11,802 nt of DNA from a virus. The stretch lies in UHGV virus genome UHGV-0166849; one strand, given 5' to 3'. The notes beneath the pieces were generated by a model, which was not told the origin of the DNA, did not search any database, and saw only the letters and a list, made by a program, of their open reading frames with translations. Every line of letters starts with the position of its first letter. Positions within the stretch are counted from its first letter, which is position 1. Below are positions 1 to 8,418 of this stretch, piece after piece. Both the position numbers and the translations under genes were made by a program.

Positions 1-49
1 ACTTACTTCTTTATGTGATCAGTTCATATTTTTGACGCCAACGAAACAT

Positions 50-2995
50 TTAGTGCTTCCCTTCTATTAAGTCTAACCTAGCTTTTATCTTATCCATTTC
101 TCTGCGCTGCCATGCTGCCTCGATATAGAATAAGAGATCAGGTCTGACCCCCCATCTAGATCCTGCTGGCGTTATTTCAACGCGCTCAATGATGTCTTCT
201 ATTACCATCACTGGATTATCATCCTCATCAACAATGATGCTCCCGTCATTATCAGTCAGCGGCATTTCCCTTTGGCCAGTAATGACGTCATCATATACTG
301 CGGGATAATCGTCATAGCAAAGAAAGGCATAGCGGCATGTTGTGCTTTCTTCTTCCATGAGTCCGTGAGAAATAAGAACATCACGAAGTTGCTGCGCGAT
401 TACACCATGATGTATCCTCGCCCCTTCTTCCCCCTTTATAGCGACAGCGTTCAGCCATTTATAAGCGATATACCTGACGTCACCCCAGGCATCCAGCAAT
501 GCTTCGTCAGGAGAGACCGGCTCTGTCTTTAATGTTCCGTCACTGGTAACCACAGGATTGGAGCCAAGATAAACTATCGAGAACCTGTTTCCCGGACCAC
601 CAAGAGCATTTACATTATCAAGATAAGGTTTAACATCTCCGTTCTCAAAAAGATGTTCGAGTGCGTTATATACCGCGCGACGTGGAGTACTGCTTCTGGA
701 ACCATGCAACGTTATCATTGCACCATCTGCTGAAGACGTTGTTTCACCGCCGCTAACGATTAATCTCTGAGCGGTAACATCATCAGACGGTACTTTCTTC
801 GCAATAATGGCGTAATTACCCTCAAGTTTGACTTCCGCGCGAACTTGTCCTGATGTACCTGCATGGACAGTCAGTGACTGGACGGCAACATCATCTGTGA
901 AATCAACGGGTACAGGAACCGTCCTCACGCCTGACGTCGACATAAAAGTAGGAAGCGTTCTGTTAGGAGTGGCTCCGTAGACAAAATCCCTTGAAACAAA
1001 TTCTTCCTGTTTAATTTTCACCCTGAAACAATACAAATCAGCCGGGTGACCATCGTGAACATAAGGATATTTTCTGTTGTTATCCCCTATGCTCCATGGG
1101 TTTAGAAAATCTTCCCCACCGAAAATGTAGTACAGCCAGTTGTCTTTGATACAAACTGAACCAACACCAACCGCAGAGTTAACTATTCCGCCCTGATAAA
1201 TCTGATCAGTAACATTAACCCACTCTACATTATCCAGACTCCACTCATTGACGTTAACTCTGGTCATAAATGTTCTTGGATAATTTCCTGCATAACGGTT
1301 ATCAGGTTCTCCTCCTTCCCACTCACCAAATGCGCGCTCACTGCCAAAAATAACCAGCTCATCGCCAACTTTGGCAAAAGGAAGGTTTGAGTGATGAACA
1401 TTATTTGGGAAGCGAAGAGAATTCCATGATGTACCTAAATCAGAGCTTCTGTGCAATGAACTACCGGGTTGAGTACTTAATGTCCCCCTGGTCGTCAGAT
1501 ACAGAATGCCATCATAATATTTTACACATGGCTCAGATGCATTCGCCTCATATTCTGCAGGTATGCGTCTGCGAACAAAGCTACCAGGAGAACCGAAAGC
1601 ATCAGAGAAATAGAGTATCCCAAGCTCGCGTGGACCAATATCACCATTATGGTAGCCAACAGCAAAACTGTTATCGCTAATCGTCGCAAAACTGTGAATC
1701 TCAGTAACAGGAGTGCTTCCGTCAACAAAAGAAGGAATAGTTCCAAGACTGGTTTTTCTCCATGGTGACGAGTGAAATGATGTGCCAAAACTCCAGTATC
1801 TACCCTCGTTATTCTGATCCACATCCTGGGTATTTTGCGTCGTAACTGTAAAGGTATTTTTATCAATAACAGTAGTCACCGTCATATTCCCGGTAACATC
1901 TGTAACACCAGAGTTTGAGAAGTTGACAAAATCACCAGCAAATAATCCGTGATCAGTAATGCGAATATAAGCGACTTGCTGATTTGCTGCTTTCGTTATA
2001 CCACCATAAACGCGAAGGCTGCGACTCATTGGGCGATCCCACAACTCTGCAACCTGCAGTTTATTTCCTCTCACGGTCCGCGTCTCAATTACAGCAAAAA
2101 GGCGATTTCTGACAACCCCCATACTCATGCAGTGATAGTTAACTGTGGGATAGTTTTCATGTAAATCTGTAAGCCATTCCGGCGTTGTCCAGGTCTTCCC
2201 GTCATCTCCTGAGCGAACCCATGCAACATGGAGGTTATTTACACCATGGCGGTCTCCAGCCATAAAAGGCGCATAGATGACATTGTCATATACAAACGTT
2301 TTATCCTGCGTCCAGGCGTTGTACCACGGTGTATCTGTAATTTTAAATAACTCTCCCTGGATAAAATCTTCAGAAGCATAAAAAAGAGGCTGACCCGGTA
2401 TTCTCTCAAATAAAAAACGAGCATTTTTAAATCGACTGACATCTGGAAGAGTTGATACTTTAAAAGTAAGCCCTCGCCCATCTATCTTTTCACCACCTGT
2501 TGCAACAGAAAGTAATTCTGATAGAGCTGATGTATCATCATGAACACCATCACCAATAGCCCCCCAACCTCTTACATCATAACTGTCTCTCCATCTTGCT
2601 ATCTGAAGTTTTGGGTATTTATTCGCTCCATCTGGGTCTTCTAATTGCCGCCGTAACTGATCAGGATCATACTTCAGCACATTAGGAAAATAAAACTGCT
2701 GTGAACCATATGCATCGTACACAGCCATAGAGTGACCTTGCACAGTTACGAACTTGGCAATCTGTCCGTTATATACCGGATATCCAGCAGCGTTAATGAT
2801 GATTGGTTGCGAAACAGGAACGTGAGAGCCGTCTTCGTTCTCCACATAAGCCTGAATCTGGTTTTCAGGATTTACCGGGTCAGTGTCAATTTTACCGATA
2901 TAAATTTTGCCATTGGCTACAGCTTTAAAAGAACGCGCCATAGTGAAGAGTTGCGAAGGCATGCTGACCACAACATTTGCGGTGATATCTGTCAT
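50..2995 (-). CDS. Tailspike protein (981 aa): P22 gp9-type head-binding N-domain + sialidase-like domain with Asp-boxes + C-terminal intramolecular chaperone-like domain; probable endo-N-acetylneuraminidase (endosialidase)
   Basis: Full-length ORF in track. N-terminus [11 protein letters not shown]...[22 protein letters not shown]...ENEDGSHV...NVLKYDPDQ closely matches my memory of the P22 tailspike head-binding domain. Two Asp-box motifs are read directly: SGDDGKTW (aa 262-269, nt ~2189-2212) and SSDLGTSW (aa 517-524, nt ~1424-1447). The C-terminal ~160 aa (motifs [25 protein letters not shown]) resemble endosialidase/tail-fibre C-terminal chaperone domains. SD GGAG lies 8 nt upstream of the ATG at 2995. 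Confidence 0.85.
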
Positions 2996-3051
2996 TTAAT
3001 TTGCTCCAGATACAAGGAATCGCCGCAGCGTGGCTACGGTGAATTTTGGGC

Positions 3052-3079
3052 ATAAAAAAACCCAGCCGAAGCTGGGTCG
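3052..3079 (-). terminator. Rho-independent terminator between ant and the tailspike gene (t_ant-like)
   Basis: On the + strand: A7 run (3054-3060), then a 7-bp stem ACCCAGC/GCTGGGT with loop CGAA (3060-3077). Read on the minus strand this is a hairpin followed by a U7 run, 19 nt downstream of the ant stop. Confidence 0.6.
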
Positions 3080-3095
3080 TTGCGTTGTTTATCTG

Positions 3096-4019
3096 TCAGT
3101 AGTTATGTACTGAAGGAGGTAATTCTTTGTTCTTAAGTCTTATCCATGCTGAAAGGTTTGTTGGTCCGTCTGGCTCATTAATATCAACATCTCGTGTATG
3201 GTTGATTAAAACATCTCTCGCCATTCCGATAACATACGAGAACTCATAACCGCAGTCATGACATCTGCCGGAATAGTTCGATTGAATTTGTTTCAGCGCC
3301 GGATACAGTTCGCGGAATAATGCCTGTGAGCGGTTGGCATAATCCCATAGCCATACAAGGCTGTTTGCTTCTTTTGCAGAAAGCTCGTTGGTTTTCTTCT
3401 CTTGTTTGCCAATGAACTCACCTTCAAGTGGAACTCGAGCTGCAAGTGATAGTGCTTCGGTAAACTGCTCCTCACTGATTTCTTTGTACGAACATCCAAA
3501 ATGGGATTTCAGTGACGACCACATGGTGATCATCGCCTTAGCCCGTTTTTCTTTTGGCAGAGACTGACCGCGACTCATGACGAGTTGTTTAATGGCTTCC
3601 TGCTGTTCAGTGGTGATTTTACCCGGCAACGCCTTTTTAGCTTTGCGTGGGTTAACTACATAGCCTTTAGTCCAGTACTCGTAGAGCACATCGTCACACT
3701 CTTCCTGATACTGGATTACCTTGTCGCGGATTTCAGGGCGGACTTTGTTTGGCTGAATGCTTGAAAGCCAAGCCGCAAACTTACGAAAGGCAAGGCATAT
3801 CATTAACTGTTTACCGCCAGCAGAAGGTATTTCGATTTCCGAAATACCTTTGACAAATCTCTGTTTTAATTTAACAAATTGAGCAGCCCAAACCATACCC
3901 ATGCCTTCTACAACGGGTTTCATAGGAACGTAAGGTTCATTGTTAATGCTGACCAAAAAGAGATTTGTTCCGTGGAATGGAACGTTGATTGTATGTTCTG
4001 CAATTGCTACACTCGTCAT
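3096..4019 (-). CDS. ant: Antirepressor Ant (307 aa), AntA/Bro-N-like N-terminal domain
   Basis: ORF in track. Sits downstream of arc and upstream of the tailspike, as in P22 immI. N-terminal region (..VPFHGTNLFLV...PMKPVVEGMGMVWAAQ..KL) looks like phage antirepressor N-domains. SD AGGA ~8 nt upstream of the ATG at 4019. Confidence 0.75.
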   Translation of the reverse strand: MTSVAIAEHTINVPFHGTNLFLVSINNEPYVPMKPVVEGMGMVWAAQFVKLKQRFVKGISEIEIPSAGGKQLMICLAFRKFAAWLSSIQPNKVRPEIRDKVIQYQEECDDVLYEYWTKGYVVNPRKAKKALPGKITTEQQEAIKQLVMSRGQSLPKEKRAKAMITMWSSLKSHFGCSYKEISEEQFTEALSLAARVPLEGEFIGKQEKKTNELSAKEANSLVWLWDYANRSQALFRELYPALKQIQSNYSGRCHDCGYEFSYVIGMARDVLINHTRDVDINEPDGPTNLSAWIRLKNKELPPSVHNY

Positions 4020-4090: not shown

Positions 4091-4304
4091 TTTGTAAGTC
4101 ACTGTAGCTATAAAGCCACTGACCACTCATTTTTGATTTGATTGACTCTACTGAATCACGGCAAGGAATGATTCCACCTGACATCATTCTGATCTCCGTA
4201 AATTCACCACTCCTTATCGATTCAATGCCATCAATGTTAACTAAAGATTTACCTCTACCAAGTGCATTCTCATAGCCAATCTCATCAACCTCAATAAACT
4301 TCAT
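4083..4304 (-). CDS. Hypothetical protein (73 aa) located between arc and ant
   Basis: ORF in track. Its ATG overlaps the arc stop codon (ATGA at 4301-4304, minus strand), which suggests translational coupling. SD-like GAGGGGA upstream. No recognisable motif. As I recall P22 immI, there is no gene between arc and ant. Confidence 0.45.
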   Translation of the reverse strand: MKFIEVDEIGYENALGRGKSLVNIDGIESIRSGEFTEIRMMSGGIIPCRDSVESIKSKMSGQWLYSYSDLQKQ

Positions 4305-4459
4305 ACCGTTATCCCCTCTCTCTTCAGGCTGTCCAACACTCGCTTGTAAATCTCAGAGTTAACAGATCGCCCGTTCTCTTCAGCTACCTTGCGCACCAAA
4401 TCCAATACTTCTTTAGGCCACCGCAAATTGAACTGCGGCATTTTTCTTGCACCTTGCAT
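4301..4459 (-). CDS. arc: Arc transcriptional repressor (52 aa, ribbon-helix-helix)
   Basis: Not in the ORF track (below its size cutoff). Manual translation of the minus strand gives MQGARKMPQFNLRWPKEVLDLVRKVAEENGRSVNSEIYKRVLDSLKREGITV, near-identical in its first 40 residues to P22 Arc as I recall it (MKGMSKMPQFNLRWPREVLDLVRKVAEENGRSVNSEIYQRV...). SD AGGGGA upstream of the ATG at 4459. Confidence 0.85.
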   Translation of the reverse strand: MQGARKMPQFNLRWPKEVLDLVRKVAEENGRSVNSEIYKRVLDSLKREGITV

Positions 4460-4481
4460 GTCATCCCCTTTGTGGTATTAC

Positions 4482-4508
4482 CGTACTACTATTGAAAGCG
4501 TACTACTA
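4482..4508. repeat. Two copies of a 10-bp direct repeat CGTACTACTA (4482-4491 and 4499-4508) flanking TTGAAAG; candidate operator for Arc and/or Mnt
   Basis: Read directly from the sequence. The repeats overlap the predicted P_ant -10 and transcription start region and flank the P_mnt -35. The TAGTAG core on the opposite strand is reminiscent of the P22 arc operator half-sites. Confidence 0.4.
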
Positions 4509-4520
4509 CCGTCCTAGCAT
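4492..4520 (+). promoter_or_regulatory. Candidate P_mnt promoter, overlapping back-to-back with P_ant
   Basis: On the plus strand: -35 TTGAAA (4492-4497), 17-bp spacer, -10 TAGCAT (4515-4520). Followed by SD AAGGAG (4533-4538) and the GTG start of mnt at 4545. Confidence 0.4.
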
Positions 4521-4525
4521 GTCAA
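4497..4525 (-). promoter_or_regulatory. Candidate P_ant promoter (drives arc, orf73, ant)
   Basis: On the minus strand: perfect -35 TTGACA (4525-4520), 17-bp spacer, weak -10 TACGCT (4502-4497). Lies in the divergent arc/mnt intergenic region, as in P22. Confidence 0.45.
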
Positions 4526-4544
4526 CAAATAAAAGGAGAATGAC

Positions 4545-4787
4545 GTGGCTAGAAATGATCCGCAATTCAACGTAAGAATGCCAGATGAGATAAAACAGCA
4601 ACTTACGCATATTGCTGCAACAAATCGTCGCTCTATCAATGCTGAAATTATTGCCGCTATCCAATTGTGGATAAAGATACATAAAGAGCAGGTAATACCT
4701 TCAAGTAGTCAGCAACTGACCAAGTCAGAGAAAGAGGCTCTTGATGTGACTATTGATGTTCTACAACGTGTAAGGGATGGGAAATGA
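4545..4787 (+). CDS. mnt: Mnt repressor (80 aa, ribbon-helix-helix, Arc/Mnt family)
   Basis: ORF in track with GTG start. N-terminus MARNDPQFNVRMP...RRSINAEI matches P22 Mnt as I recall it (MARDDPHFNFRMP...GRSMNSEL). Divergent from arc, with a strong SD AAGGAG 6 nt upstream. Confidence 0.85.
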   Translation: MARNDPQFNVRMPDEIKQQLTHIAATNRRSINAEIIAAIQLWIKIHKEQVIPSSSQQLTKSEKEALDVTIDVLQRVRDGK

Positions 4788-5056
4788 AACCAACGAACAA
4801 AGAAATTTTCGAGCAAATAAAAGTACTTCCTTTCACTATTGAGCTTGCAAAGAGATATGAAGCTTATTATCCGTTTACCGAAGAGTCGATACGGATAGAG
4901 ACATATGATGAGTTTGGTCAGTGCTCTATCTGGCTTGGCTTTGAAGACCAATTTGCTATACGTGATGCTTTTGGAAATTGGAGAATGGCTACAGCTGAAG
5001 AATGTATTGATCTCAGAGGTGGCAACCTTCCAGGTTCAATGACATTAGTTAATTAA
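4784..5056 (+). CDS. Hypothetical acidic protein (90 aa), translationally coupled to mnt
   Basis: ORF in track. Its ATG overlaps the mnt stop (ATGA at 4784-4787). Net acidic (15 D+E versus 9 K+R). No recognisable motif. Confidence 0.55.
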   Translation: MKPTNKEIFEQIKVLPFTIELAKRYEAYYPFTEESIRIETYDEFGQCSIWLGFEDQFAIRDAFGNWRMATAEECIDLRGGNLPGSMTLVN

Positions 5057-5080
5057 CGGCGTACATGGCAGGTATGTAAA

Positions 5081-5266
5081 ATGAATAATAAACCAATGTC
5101 TAACGAAGAGTTGCAGCGCGAGTTAAAGAAACTTCATAAACTGGTATCACTTATCTACTCCAAGTTGCCACCAGATGCTCGACAAGCTGTTTTTGATGAA
5201 CTAACAAGAAGCGGAGATAGGGATGATCTGGATACTGCTTCTCGTATCAATAGCTACCGTTTTTAA
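5081..5266 (+). CDS. Hypothetical protein (61 aa)
   Basis: ORF in track. Weak SD (AGGT) 7 nt upstream. Its last 20 nt overlap a convergent minus-strand small ORF. Coding status uncertain. Confidence 0.35.
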   Translation: MNNKPMSNEELQRELKKLHKLVSLIYSKLPPDARQAVFDELTRSGDRDDLDTASRINSYRF

Positions 5267-5426
5267 TAGCCTCCAGAGTCGAATCGTAACGACTGCGCAT
5301 TGATTTTGCTGATTTCTCAAGCTCTTCTGCTTGATGCTTCAGTGATTCAAGATGAAGCTCTCCAAGATGGCACTTCATCACTTTGATGGTGCGTTCAAGG
5401 TTTTCCACACGTTCTTCTATGGTCAT
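5247..5426 (-). CDS. Hypothetical protein (59 aa), helical and charged; not in the ORF track
   Basis: Manual translation gives MTIEERVENLERTIKVMKCHLGELHLESLKHQAEELEKSAKSMRSRYDSTLEAIKNGSY. Strong SD AAGGA 6 nt upstream of the ATG at 5426. No obvious promoter between it and the upstream terminator, so expression is uncertain. Confidence 0.35.
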   Translation of the reverse strand: MTIEERVENLERTIKVMKCHLGELHLESLKHQAEELEKSAKSMRSRYDSTLEAIKNGSY

Positions 5427-5458
5427 GGTATTTCCTTAATCTTTAAAGTAGAGAAGAT

Positions 5459-5490
5459 AAAAAAACCCACCTGACGGTGGGTTAATTTTT
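5459..5490. terminator. Bidirectional rho-independent terminator
   Basis: A-run (5459-5465), perfect 8-bp stem AACCCACC/GGTGGGTT with loop TGAC (5464-5483), then AATTTTT (5484-5490). The A-run on one side and T-run on the other allow termination in both directions. Confidence 0.65.
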
Positions 5491-5508
5491 GCATTTACCT
5501 GGGCCATA

Positions 5509-5537
5509 TTGACTACTCATAAAATGAGATCAATATT
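5509..5537 (+). promoter_or_regulatory. Candidate sigma70 promoter for the small gene at 5574, with an inverted repeat in the spacer
   Basis: -35 TTGACT (5509-5514), 17-bp spacer, -10 AATATT (5532-5537). The spacer contains the inverted repeat CTCAT-AAAA-TGAG (5517-5529), a possible operator. Confidence 0.35.
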
Positions 5538-5573
5538 TAATCGCCCAATAACGGGTGTATGTTGAGGTATATC

Positions 5574-5753
5574 ATGGCGAAAAAACCAGGTGAAAACACA
5601 GGAAAAAACGGCGGAATATACCAAGAAGTTGGCCCACGCGGCGGTAAGAAAGACAATTTTGCAACCGTCAAGGACAACGAAAGGCTTCCACCAACAACAA
5701 AGCCAGGTCATGGCTGGGTATTGGATAAGCGAACTCCAGACAGCAAAAAGTAA
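5574..5753 (+). CDS. Hypothetical small basic protein (59 aa; alternative start at 5559 gives 64 aa)
   Basis: ORF in track. SD GAGG (5564-5567) 6 nt upstream of the ATG at 5574. Gly/Lys/Pro-rich sequence MAKKPGENTGKNGGIYQEVGPRGGKK...LPPTTKPGHGWVLD. I have a vague sense this resembles a conserved small-protein family but cannot name it. Confidence 0.55.
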   Translation: MAKKPGENTGKNGGIYQEVGPRGGKKDNFATVKDNERLPPTTKPGHGWVLDKRTPDSKK

Positions 5754-5766
5754 TACTCAAGCCGGG

Positions 5767-6132
5767 TCACTCCGGCTTTTTGATATGTCGCTCGCAGAAC
5801 TCAACAAGCCTGCTCATTAAGTAGCAGTAAGTCTCATTGGCTCTTCCTGGTTCAACATCAACACCGACCCTTGAGCAGATATCGAATGCCATGTGAGCGC
5901 ACTCATGGGCAATAGTAGATAGTTTGCCATTGAACACGCCTATCACATGCAAAACACCATTCTCGCTGCTCATTGTATGAGACGCTCCGTTGGCGTCCGA
6001 GTCATGCACGTCAACGCCAAGTTTTTGATGCAGGCGTTGCCATTCTGGAAAGTCTCTACAAAACACAATTGTACCGCTCTCAAAGAGCGGAACGAGCATC
6101 TTTGGTACGTTTCCAATGTTAACTTTTTTCAT
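5767..6132 (-). CDS. Hypothetical HExxH-motif protein (121 aa); candidate mini zinc-metallopeptidase
   Basis: ORF in track starts at a TTG at 6171. I prefer the first ATG at 6132, which has SD AGGA ~5 nt upstream. Contains HECAH (aa 76-80) with Glu residues 14 and 20 aa downstream, consistent with a zincin HExxH...E arrangement. The overlapping plus-strand translation looks non-protein-like. Confidence 0.55.
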   Translation of the reverse strand: MKKVNIGNVPKMLVPLFESGTIVFCRDFPEWQRLHQKLGVDVHDSDANGASHTMSSENGVLHVIGVFNGKLSTIAHECAHMAFDICSRVGVDVEPGRANETYCYLMSRLVEFCERHIKKPE

Positions 6133-6162
6133 GGTATCCTGCTCAAAACTAAGGAGCTTGGT

Positions 6163-6552
6163 GTGAAGCAATTTCTTGCTGCTATGTTCTTATTCATATC
6201 TTTTGGGGCTACAGCAGAGTGCTGGGTCGTTGGAGATATGCGCGGAATAAGCTATTCAGAACGAAATAATTTCCATCCGGAAGAAGATGGTTTTAGTGGA
6301 ACATTCATCATTAAGACAAGCGGTGAAGATGCCAGCATCACATATTCTGGGACAGATGCGGGCGGCATGGCTTACAAAGCATTGTCTAAAAACTCCATCA
6401 TAGGAATCGGCGCGAATGGCGAAACTCAACGCGTTATCGACTCATGGGTAATACATCCTACTGGAACAGTTTTAATGTCAAAAACCATTTCTGGTTATGG
6501 GAATATGGATTCAACCAAAGCTTTTGTTGGAAAAGTAAAAAGAAAATGTTAA
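6163..6552 (+). CDS. Hypothetical secreted/periplasmic protein (129-aa precursor) with Sec signal peptide
   Basis: Start re-called to the GTG at 6163, with SD AAGGAG (6151-6156) 6 nt upstream. N-terminus MKQFLAAMFLFISFGATA|ECW has an n-h-c signal-peptide layout with an A-x-A cleavage site. The predicted mature protein has one Cys at residue 2 and one as the C-terminal residue. No lipobox. Opposite orientation to the late operon, at the position P22 uses for sieA. Confidence 0.6.
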   Translation: MKQFLAAMFLFISFGATAECWVVGDMRGISYSERNNFHPEEDGFSGTFIIKTSGEDASITYSGTDAGGMAYKALSKNSIIGIGANGETQRVIDSWVIHPTGTVLMSKTISGYGNMDSTKAFVGKVKRKC

Positions 6553-6576: not shown

Positions 6577-8418
6577 TTACTGCTGTGTTGCCTCAGTAGC
6601 AAGCAGCGGCCTGATGGCATTTGCAGCGTTACTCAACGCTCTTTCATAGGCTGGTGTTCCTGCTTTGGTGTTTGCCAGACGTAAGAGCGCATTCCTTGCT
6701 GCTTTGGACTCATACAAGCGCATCATTGCACCGAAACCAGCCTCAAGCCCCATTGATACGCCAAGAGTCGCAGTTGCGCCAATCGTCCTTATCCTGTTGG
6801 CTTGCGATTGCCCCGTCTGAGTTACTACATTTGCGGTGTCTGACCTTGCTGTTTGCTGCAGAACTTCATGAAGAGCATCAAGTTCTTTCATGTGCTTTCC
6901 AGAAAAAATAGTGTTGTAAATTTCACCGCCTGACTGAGATTTCAGCTTATTAACTTCAGTGATGAACTTGGCTGGAGAGTCACCGGCCTTTTCCGCTATT
7001 TTGCTGACGTAAGCTGCACGCATAGCATCTTTCCCTTTATCATCCAGTGCGCTCCAGATTCGTTTCACGTCAGATGGTTTTCTGCTTAATACAACGGTAT
7101 TTATAAGTTCAGGACTGGCTTCACTGCTTGCCTTGTTGAGTTTGTTAGCAATGTTTTTATTAAGCACCTTATTATAAACGTTTGCATAATCGGAATTTGC
7201 TTTAAGGTATTTTGCTGCGTCTGATGCACCGAGGTTTTTAGCAACTGCGTTACGAAGGTCTTTTGACATTGCATTCTCTACCATATTGGTAGCTGCTTTT
7301 GCCTGGTTGGGGAAGACCATAGCATCTCCCTGAACATTAGATCTAAATGCTGTTCTGTGCTGACGCAAGAGATCAAACGTAACATCCAAATCAGTTGCAG
7401 GGTTTGCTAATTCTTCACGTAGGTTACGCAAGGATGTAAGCAGGCTTTGATTGGCAGACGTCCCAAGTCGTTCCTGTCTTGCGATCGCTGTATTCAGAGC
7501 ATTCATGGTATTTGTGGTATCAACTGCGGCATTACCCATTTTATTGGTGACGTCATTGATAACAGCGCCAGCGGCATCCTTCCTCCCCCTTAACGTGGTG
7601 GTCAGAGATTTCACCACATCATCAGGGTTGTACTCACCAAAACGGTCAAAATAATTACTTACCAGCTTACTACGCGTTGCATATTGCTCCGCTCGCTTTG
7701 AGCCTGTCCCGAGCAAAGCCCCCTCGGCATCCTGAGTAAGGCCGCGAGTGAAAGCATTTTTCGGCGGGATAACATCAGATGTCATTGGTGTCACGCCCAT
7801 CGATTCTGATGTGGCAATTTTCTTCGCCACTTCTGGCGCAATATCACCTTTTATAGCCGTTATTCCACGCCCTATTCCCTTTGCTGCGGCGGAAAGAACA
7901 CCCTGAGCGGCAAGGTTAACTCCGGCATTTTTAGCTGCATTTTGTGCGAAATCGCCTTTCTGATTTGCGGCCTCTGCCAGTGATCCAATAGCCATGCTTC
8001 CTGCCGTTCCAACTCCTGGAACTAAATACCCACCAATTGTTTCACCGGCTTGTGCGTAGGGGTCTGTCGGTCTGTCTACTGGACGATAAACATCATCCAA
8101 AACCTTGGGTCCACCAAGCCCCTGACTGATTGCATTAATCAGACTTGCGCCACCCTGCAATACGTCAAATGGTATGTTTACCAGACCACGACCAGCCTGT
8201 TCTGCAATTTGCTCTGCACTTTGACCACCAGTGAGCCAATCGCCAGCTTGTTGCATCAATGATGGTTCTTCCCGTGTTGGTGCATTATTGGCCTGATTAA
8301 CTGTTTGTTGCTGAACAGCCTGACCAGCAAAATACTCATCAATGGCGGTGCCAATATCTTCGGTGCTCGTACCATCAGGAAAGGTAAATGTCTTACCGTT
8401 TGCAGTTACTTTCATCAT
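6577..8418 (-). CDS. Ejection (pilot) protein, P22 gp16-like (about 612 aa)
   Basis: ORF in track. Size and position (last gene of the gp7-gp20-gp16 series, immediately before the immI/accessory region) match P22 gene 16. Its start overlaps the gp20-like stop (ATGA). Confidence 0.8.

Follow-up and report, generated by a model that had tools for sequence, protein, structure and literature searches.

The window analysed here is an 11,802-nt stretch of a viral genome (UHGV-0166849). Its open reading frame list and translation gave a 981-aa reading frame on the minus strand at 50–2995, with the stop codon at 50–52, which is a complete endosialidase tailspike gene of the siaK1 type. Residues 1–113 (2657–2995, minus strand) form a P22-type head-binding domain for virion attachment (Pfam PF09008 Head_binding, E = 3.4e-66), and this part is matched by the N-terminal domains of P22/Sf6/CUS-3-type tailspikes in the PDB with E values of 1e-45 to 1e-65. 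The endosialidase catalytic part, which makes up the body of the mature enzyme, covers residues 146–817 (545–2560, minus strand). It consists of an N-terminal extension (End_N_terminal, residues 146–212, E = 7.7e-37), a beta-propeller (End_beta_propel, residues 213–662, E = 1e-232) with an inserted beta-barrel (End_beta_barrel, residues 324–406, E = 1.7e-45), and a triple-beta-helix stalk (End_tail_spike, residues 663–817, E = 6.6e-78), all on the minus strand. Searched against PDB sequences, residues 145–817 matched mature endoNF of phage K1F (1V0E, 3GVL and others) with E = 0. In the alignment, E488, R503 and R554 of the tailspike occupy the positions of endoNF E581, R596 and R647, reportedly the active site in the work of Stummeyer et al. 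(2005). With the propeller, barrel and stalk domains present and the catalytic residues retained, the protein belongs to the GH58 endosialidases.

Outside the tailspike gene the window holds a P22-like late/immI region with ant (3096–4019) and homologues of gp16, gp20, gp7 and gp14. The interval between ant and the tailspike start contains a strong terminator-like hairpin (3059–3078, minus strand) with eight pairs, GACCCAGCTTCGGCTGGGTT and then a T-run, within the boundary sequence bsq1 of the CUS-3 record. Between ant and the ejection-protein genes, at approximately 4100–6550, there are small reading frames and a 201-aa reading frame (5947–6552, plus strand), none of which matched a Pfam family; this region is not shared with CUS-3. 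Likewise, no Pfam match was obtained for the 613-aa reading frame in the gp16 position (6577–8418), and a 233-aa reading frame without a family match is needle-sized by length only. Within the tailspike gene, the sole opposite-strand reading frame of at least 60 aa inside the chaperone-domain region described below (272–532, plus strand) was rejected as a gene, since it runs antisense to conserved coding sequence and matched no family. Promoter-like sites within this region were not in excess (6 found, with 6.3 expected from shuffled sequence), and terminator-like matches inside the chaperone-domain region were at background level.

By sequence homology, residues 818–981 (53–544, minus strand; 164 aa, 18.65 kDa, pI 4.5) are a C-terminal intramolecular chaperone domain (CIMCD, MEROPS/Pfam Peptidase S74). 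The Pfam profile PF13884, Peptidase_S74 “Chaperone of endosialidase”, matched residues 818–878 with 41.5 bits in the whole protein (E = 1.6e-10) and 45.2 bits in the 164 residues alone (E = 1.1e-11), both above the curated cut-off of 22 bits. The match spans profile positions 1–58, with position 1 exactly on Ser818, and directly adjoins the stalk domain that ends at residue 817, which is the C-terminal placement after a stalk expected of the family. A match was also obtained between residues 698–979 and PDB 3GW6, the stalk and chaperone domain of the endoNF S911A mutant (E = 2.5e-94), with identities of 54% in the stalk, 55% in the chaperone domain (153 aligned residues) and 67% in the S74 core. 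The initial annotation had described the C-terminus as S74- or chaperone-like, and the profile and 3GW6 matches put this far beyond chance. All four of the C-terminal motifs that it quoted, including ITPAGSRWG, are present in the translation, and its coordinates of 53–544 correspond exactly to residues 818–981, with Ser818 at 542–544 and Asp819 at 539–541.

The fold of the domain, namely a trimeric C-terminal coiled coil, an alpha/beta lobe and a beta-hairpin tentacle, is implied by the 55% identity to 3GW6. The domain closes with a helix-forming segment (residues 951–981), whose counterpart in the alignment is the C-terminal segment of the endoNF chaperone domain, a part that makes a trimeric coiled coil in homologues. 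Residues 780–981 modelled by AlphaFold2 from the single sequence gave a poor and uninformative result (mean pLDDT 40.6, pTM 0.22), so the predicted fold derives from sequence homology.

EndoNF differs from the present tailspike at the N-terminus, where it carries a T7-type adaptor in place of the P22-type head-binding domain, and in the 926–940 region, where the segment found here is eight residues longer. More distant members of the same Pfam family are the L-shaped tail fibre pb1 of T5, the GA-1/phi29 neck appendage, the K5 lyases and the eukaryotic MYRF, all with Ser-x4-Lys at the domain start. Their upstream passenger domains are unrelated and their identity to the domain is much lower (25–35%), although the GA-1 structure 3GUD still matched with an E value of 1.7e-9. 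A tblastn search of 50,697 phage records with residues 780–981 matched 340 records, among them tail fibres and spikes of K1F-like, phi92-like, Kagunavirus, Kuttervirus, Vectrevirus (K5-lyase type), Klebsiella, Aeromonas and Serratia phages. By contrast, a word-index protein search with the same residues returned a single 123-aa fragment, reflecting a limit of the index rather than biology.

The catalytic residues were assessed in the pairwise alignment with 3GW6 and in an alignment of 13 sequences, comprising the window sequence and 12 diverse phage homologues (AAPEc6, of the K5-lyase type, and 11 others). Ser818, the predicted nucleophile, aligns with the alanine of the endoNF S911A mutant, found at chain position 122 of 3GW6, which is residue 911 if the construct begins at residue 790. 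Lys823 (codon 527–529, minus strand), the predicted general base of a Ser-Lys dyad, aligns with Lys916, and Arg804 of the stalk (codon 584–586, minus strand) with Arg897; Asp793 also aligns with an aspartate in 3GW6. The tailspike thus has a serine at the domain boundary and a lysine at +5, as the dyad requires. Across the 13 sequences K823, G855, A859, R860, H862, G864 and Q868 are invariant, and the equivalent of Ser818 is present in all except one. The exception is the Vectrevirus R4596 (Escherichia phage vB_EcoP_R4596 tail fibre, MK373771.1), which reads VVCDARLK, with a cysteine at the nucleophile position and the lysine at +5 retained; here the self-cleaving domain may have a variant form that uses cysteine as its nucleophile. 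The serine is usually followed by aspartate, as in the tailspike, but by asparagine in endoNF and other K1F-type proteins, and the position that follows is variable. The “DG motif” after the serine, which the initial annotation took to be a conserved feature, therefore does not hold, given that the pair is NG in endoNF and aspartate plus varied residues in most relatives. Judged from these alignments, the family signature is Ser-x4-Lys and not Ser-DG.

The closest match to the whole tailspike is with siaK1 (endoNK1; ABQ88383.1) of CUS-3, which is also 981 aa long and identical at 966 of the 981 residues (98.5%). At the nucleotide level, positions 1–3100 of the window matched the CUS-3 prophage of E. 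coli K1 RS218 (CP000711.1) over their full length with 98.4% identity. The CP000711.1 record annotates siaK1 as an endosialidase tailspike protein with endo-alpha-sialidase activity under the experimental evidence code IDA. Both proteins share the order of P22 head-binding domain, endosialidase and CIMCD, and both loci have ant upstream and P22-like ejection-protein genes. The 15 substitutions include five in the chaperone domain (window to CUS-3: A832T, I932M, M967I, D968E and K969R), which leave the key residues untouched. Three of these five are adjacent, at residues 967–969, and 34 of the 48 nucleotide differences in 50–2995 fall within 2450–2995, covering the head-binding domain and linker. 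This uneven distribution points to a catalytic core that is nearly identical in the two genes and is flanked by mosaic ends. The window as a whole is mosaic with respect to CUS-3: the prophage covers only 58% of it and does not share the surrounding immI-like region.

The endosialidase and chaperone module was also found at 99.5% nucleotide identity within a 1039-aa tail fibre of phage vB_EcoP_ZX5 (MW722083.1, 1472–4591), which is classed as a Uetakevirus and not as P22-like. The match spans 82–2474 of the window, or tailspike residues ∼174–972. The pattern resembles a very recent exchange of this module by two podophage lineages, in which one joint is near residue 174 and the other about 10 residues ahead of the C-terminus. 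The latter recombination joint is marked by the substitutions at 967–969 and a different extreme C-terminus, also seen in comparison with ZX5. Among 5,426 complete E. coli genomes, the chaperone-domain DNA (53–544) was present in 193 at an identity of at least 95%, always on the chromosome and in up to four places per genome, and was 100% identical in the O7:K1 strain CE10. None of the E. coli genomes or phage records compared covered at least 80% of the whole 11.8-kb window.

Homology with the characterised proteins places the predicted cut at the bond between Thr817 and Ser818 (542–547, minus strand; Thr817 at 545–547). The mature endoNF chains in the PDB (1V0E, 3GVL) end in “...GSNPIVT”, with the final threonine, which precedes the serine, aligned to Thr817, and in T5 pb1 the Thr1263-Ser1264 bond is cut, so that the serine leaves with the chaperone as it does in K1F (PMC4690869). 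The initial annotation had instead placed the site between Ser818 and Asp819, leaving the serine on a mature spike of 818 aa. It had the correct residue, in that Ser818 aligns with the catalytic Ser911, but by homology with endoNF and T5 the bond is off by one and the mature length would be 817 aa. A cut after Ser818 has a precedent of sorts in phi29, where the serine was modelled on the mature side, albeit in weak density (PMC4690869). We nevertheless consider it extremely unlikely here, as no other characterised relative comes nearly as close as endoNF, and both it and pb1 point to the preceding bond. Cleavage at Thr817/Ser818 would give a predicted mature spike of residues 1–817 with a computed mass of 90.75 kDa, and would release residues 818–981, whose computed mass of 18.65 kDa agrees with the ∼18 kDa originally estimated for the fragment.

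It is also conceivable that the domain is never released, and instead stays at the C-terminus of the mature virion spike, where it would permanently serve for trimerisation or receptor contact. There are C-terminal auto-chaperone regions that are not cleaved, such as the caudal fin of the P22 tailspike (PMC4690869). Retention is nonetheless highly improbable for a domain in which every residue needed for endoNF cleavage is conserved (the serine, the lysine at +5 and the stalk arginine) and which is so similar to an endoNF domain that is itself released. It is likewise exceedingly doubtful that the released acidic fragment has a second role, or that processing efficiency is altered by the 967–969 substitutions or the different extreme C-terminus. 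We are highly confident in the reading of this region as a self-cleaving CIMCD on a CUS-3-type endosialidase tailspike of a P22-like E. coli K1 prophage, with the chaperone role, the cleavage and the exact bond predicted from homology with endoNF of K1F and pb1 of T5.

In characterised proteins, the CIMCD is an intramolecular chaperone that trimerises and helps the upstream triple beta-helix to fold (PMC3742443; PMC4690869; PMC8326128), before removing itself through a Ser-Lys catalytic dyad (PMC3742443; PMC8326128). An arginine from the stalk of the neighbouring subunit serves to sense folding and to stabilise the oxyanion, as described for R897 of endoNF (PMC8326128) and R1250 of T5 pb1 (PMC4690869). 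This need for the neighbour’s arginine is proposed to restrict cleavage to correctly folded trimers, although in MYRF cleavage is independent of a stalk arginine (PMC8326128). By analogy, three nascent tailspike chains would associate via residues 818–981, and once the stalks had intertwined correctly Arg804 of a neighbouring chain would complete the active site. Ser818, activated by Lys823, would then cut the Thr817-Ser818 bond within each chain. Departure of the 164-aa, 18.65-kDa domain would leave the mature spike, a stable trimer with about 90.7 kDa per chain (residues 1(2)–817), held on the virion by its P22-type N-terminal domain, with an enzyme that would degrade the alpha-2,8-polysialic acid K1 capsule.

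The self-removing chaperone domain predicted here is a well-known element, and the gene that carries it is nearly identical to one already published and annotated. The same domain has been characterised structurally and biochemically in phage K1F and no new biology emerges from its presence in this tailspike, whose gene closely copies CUS-3 siaK1, a common gene among the genomes of K1 E. coli. Its value is for annotation, as the predicted end of the mature tailspike can be placed at Thr817. Endosialidases of this kind serve as polysialic-acid reagents and in the engineering of K1 phages, and S818, K823 and R804 are the residues to mutate for a non-cleaving or recombinant form of the enzyme.
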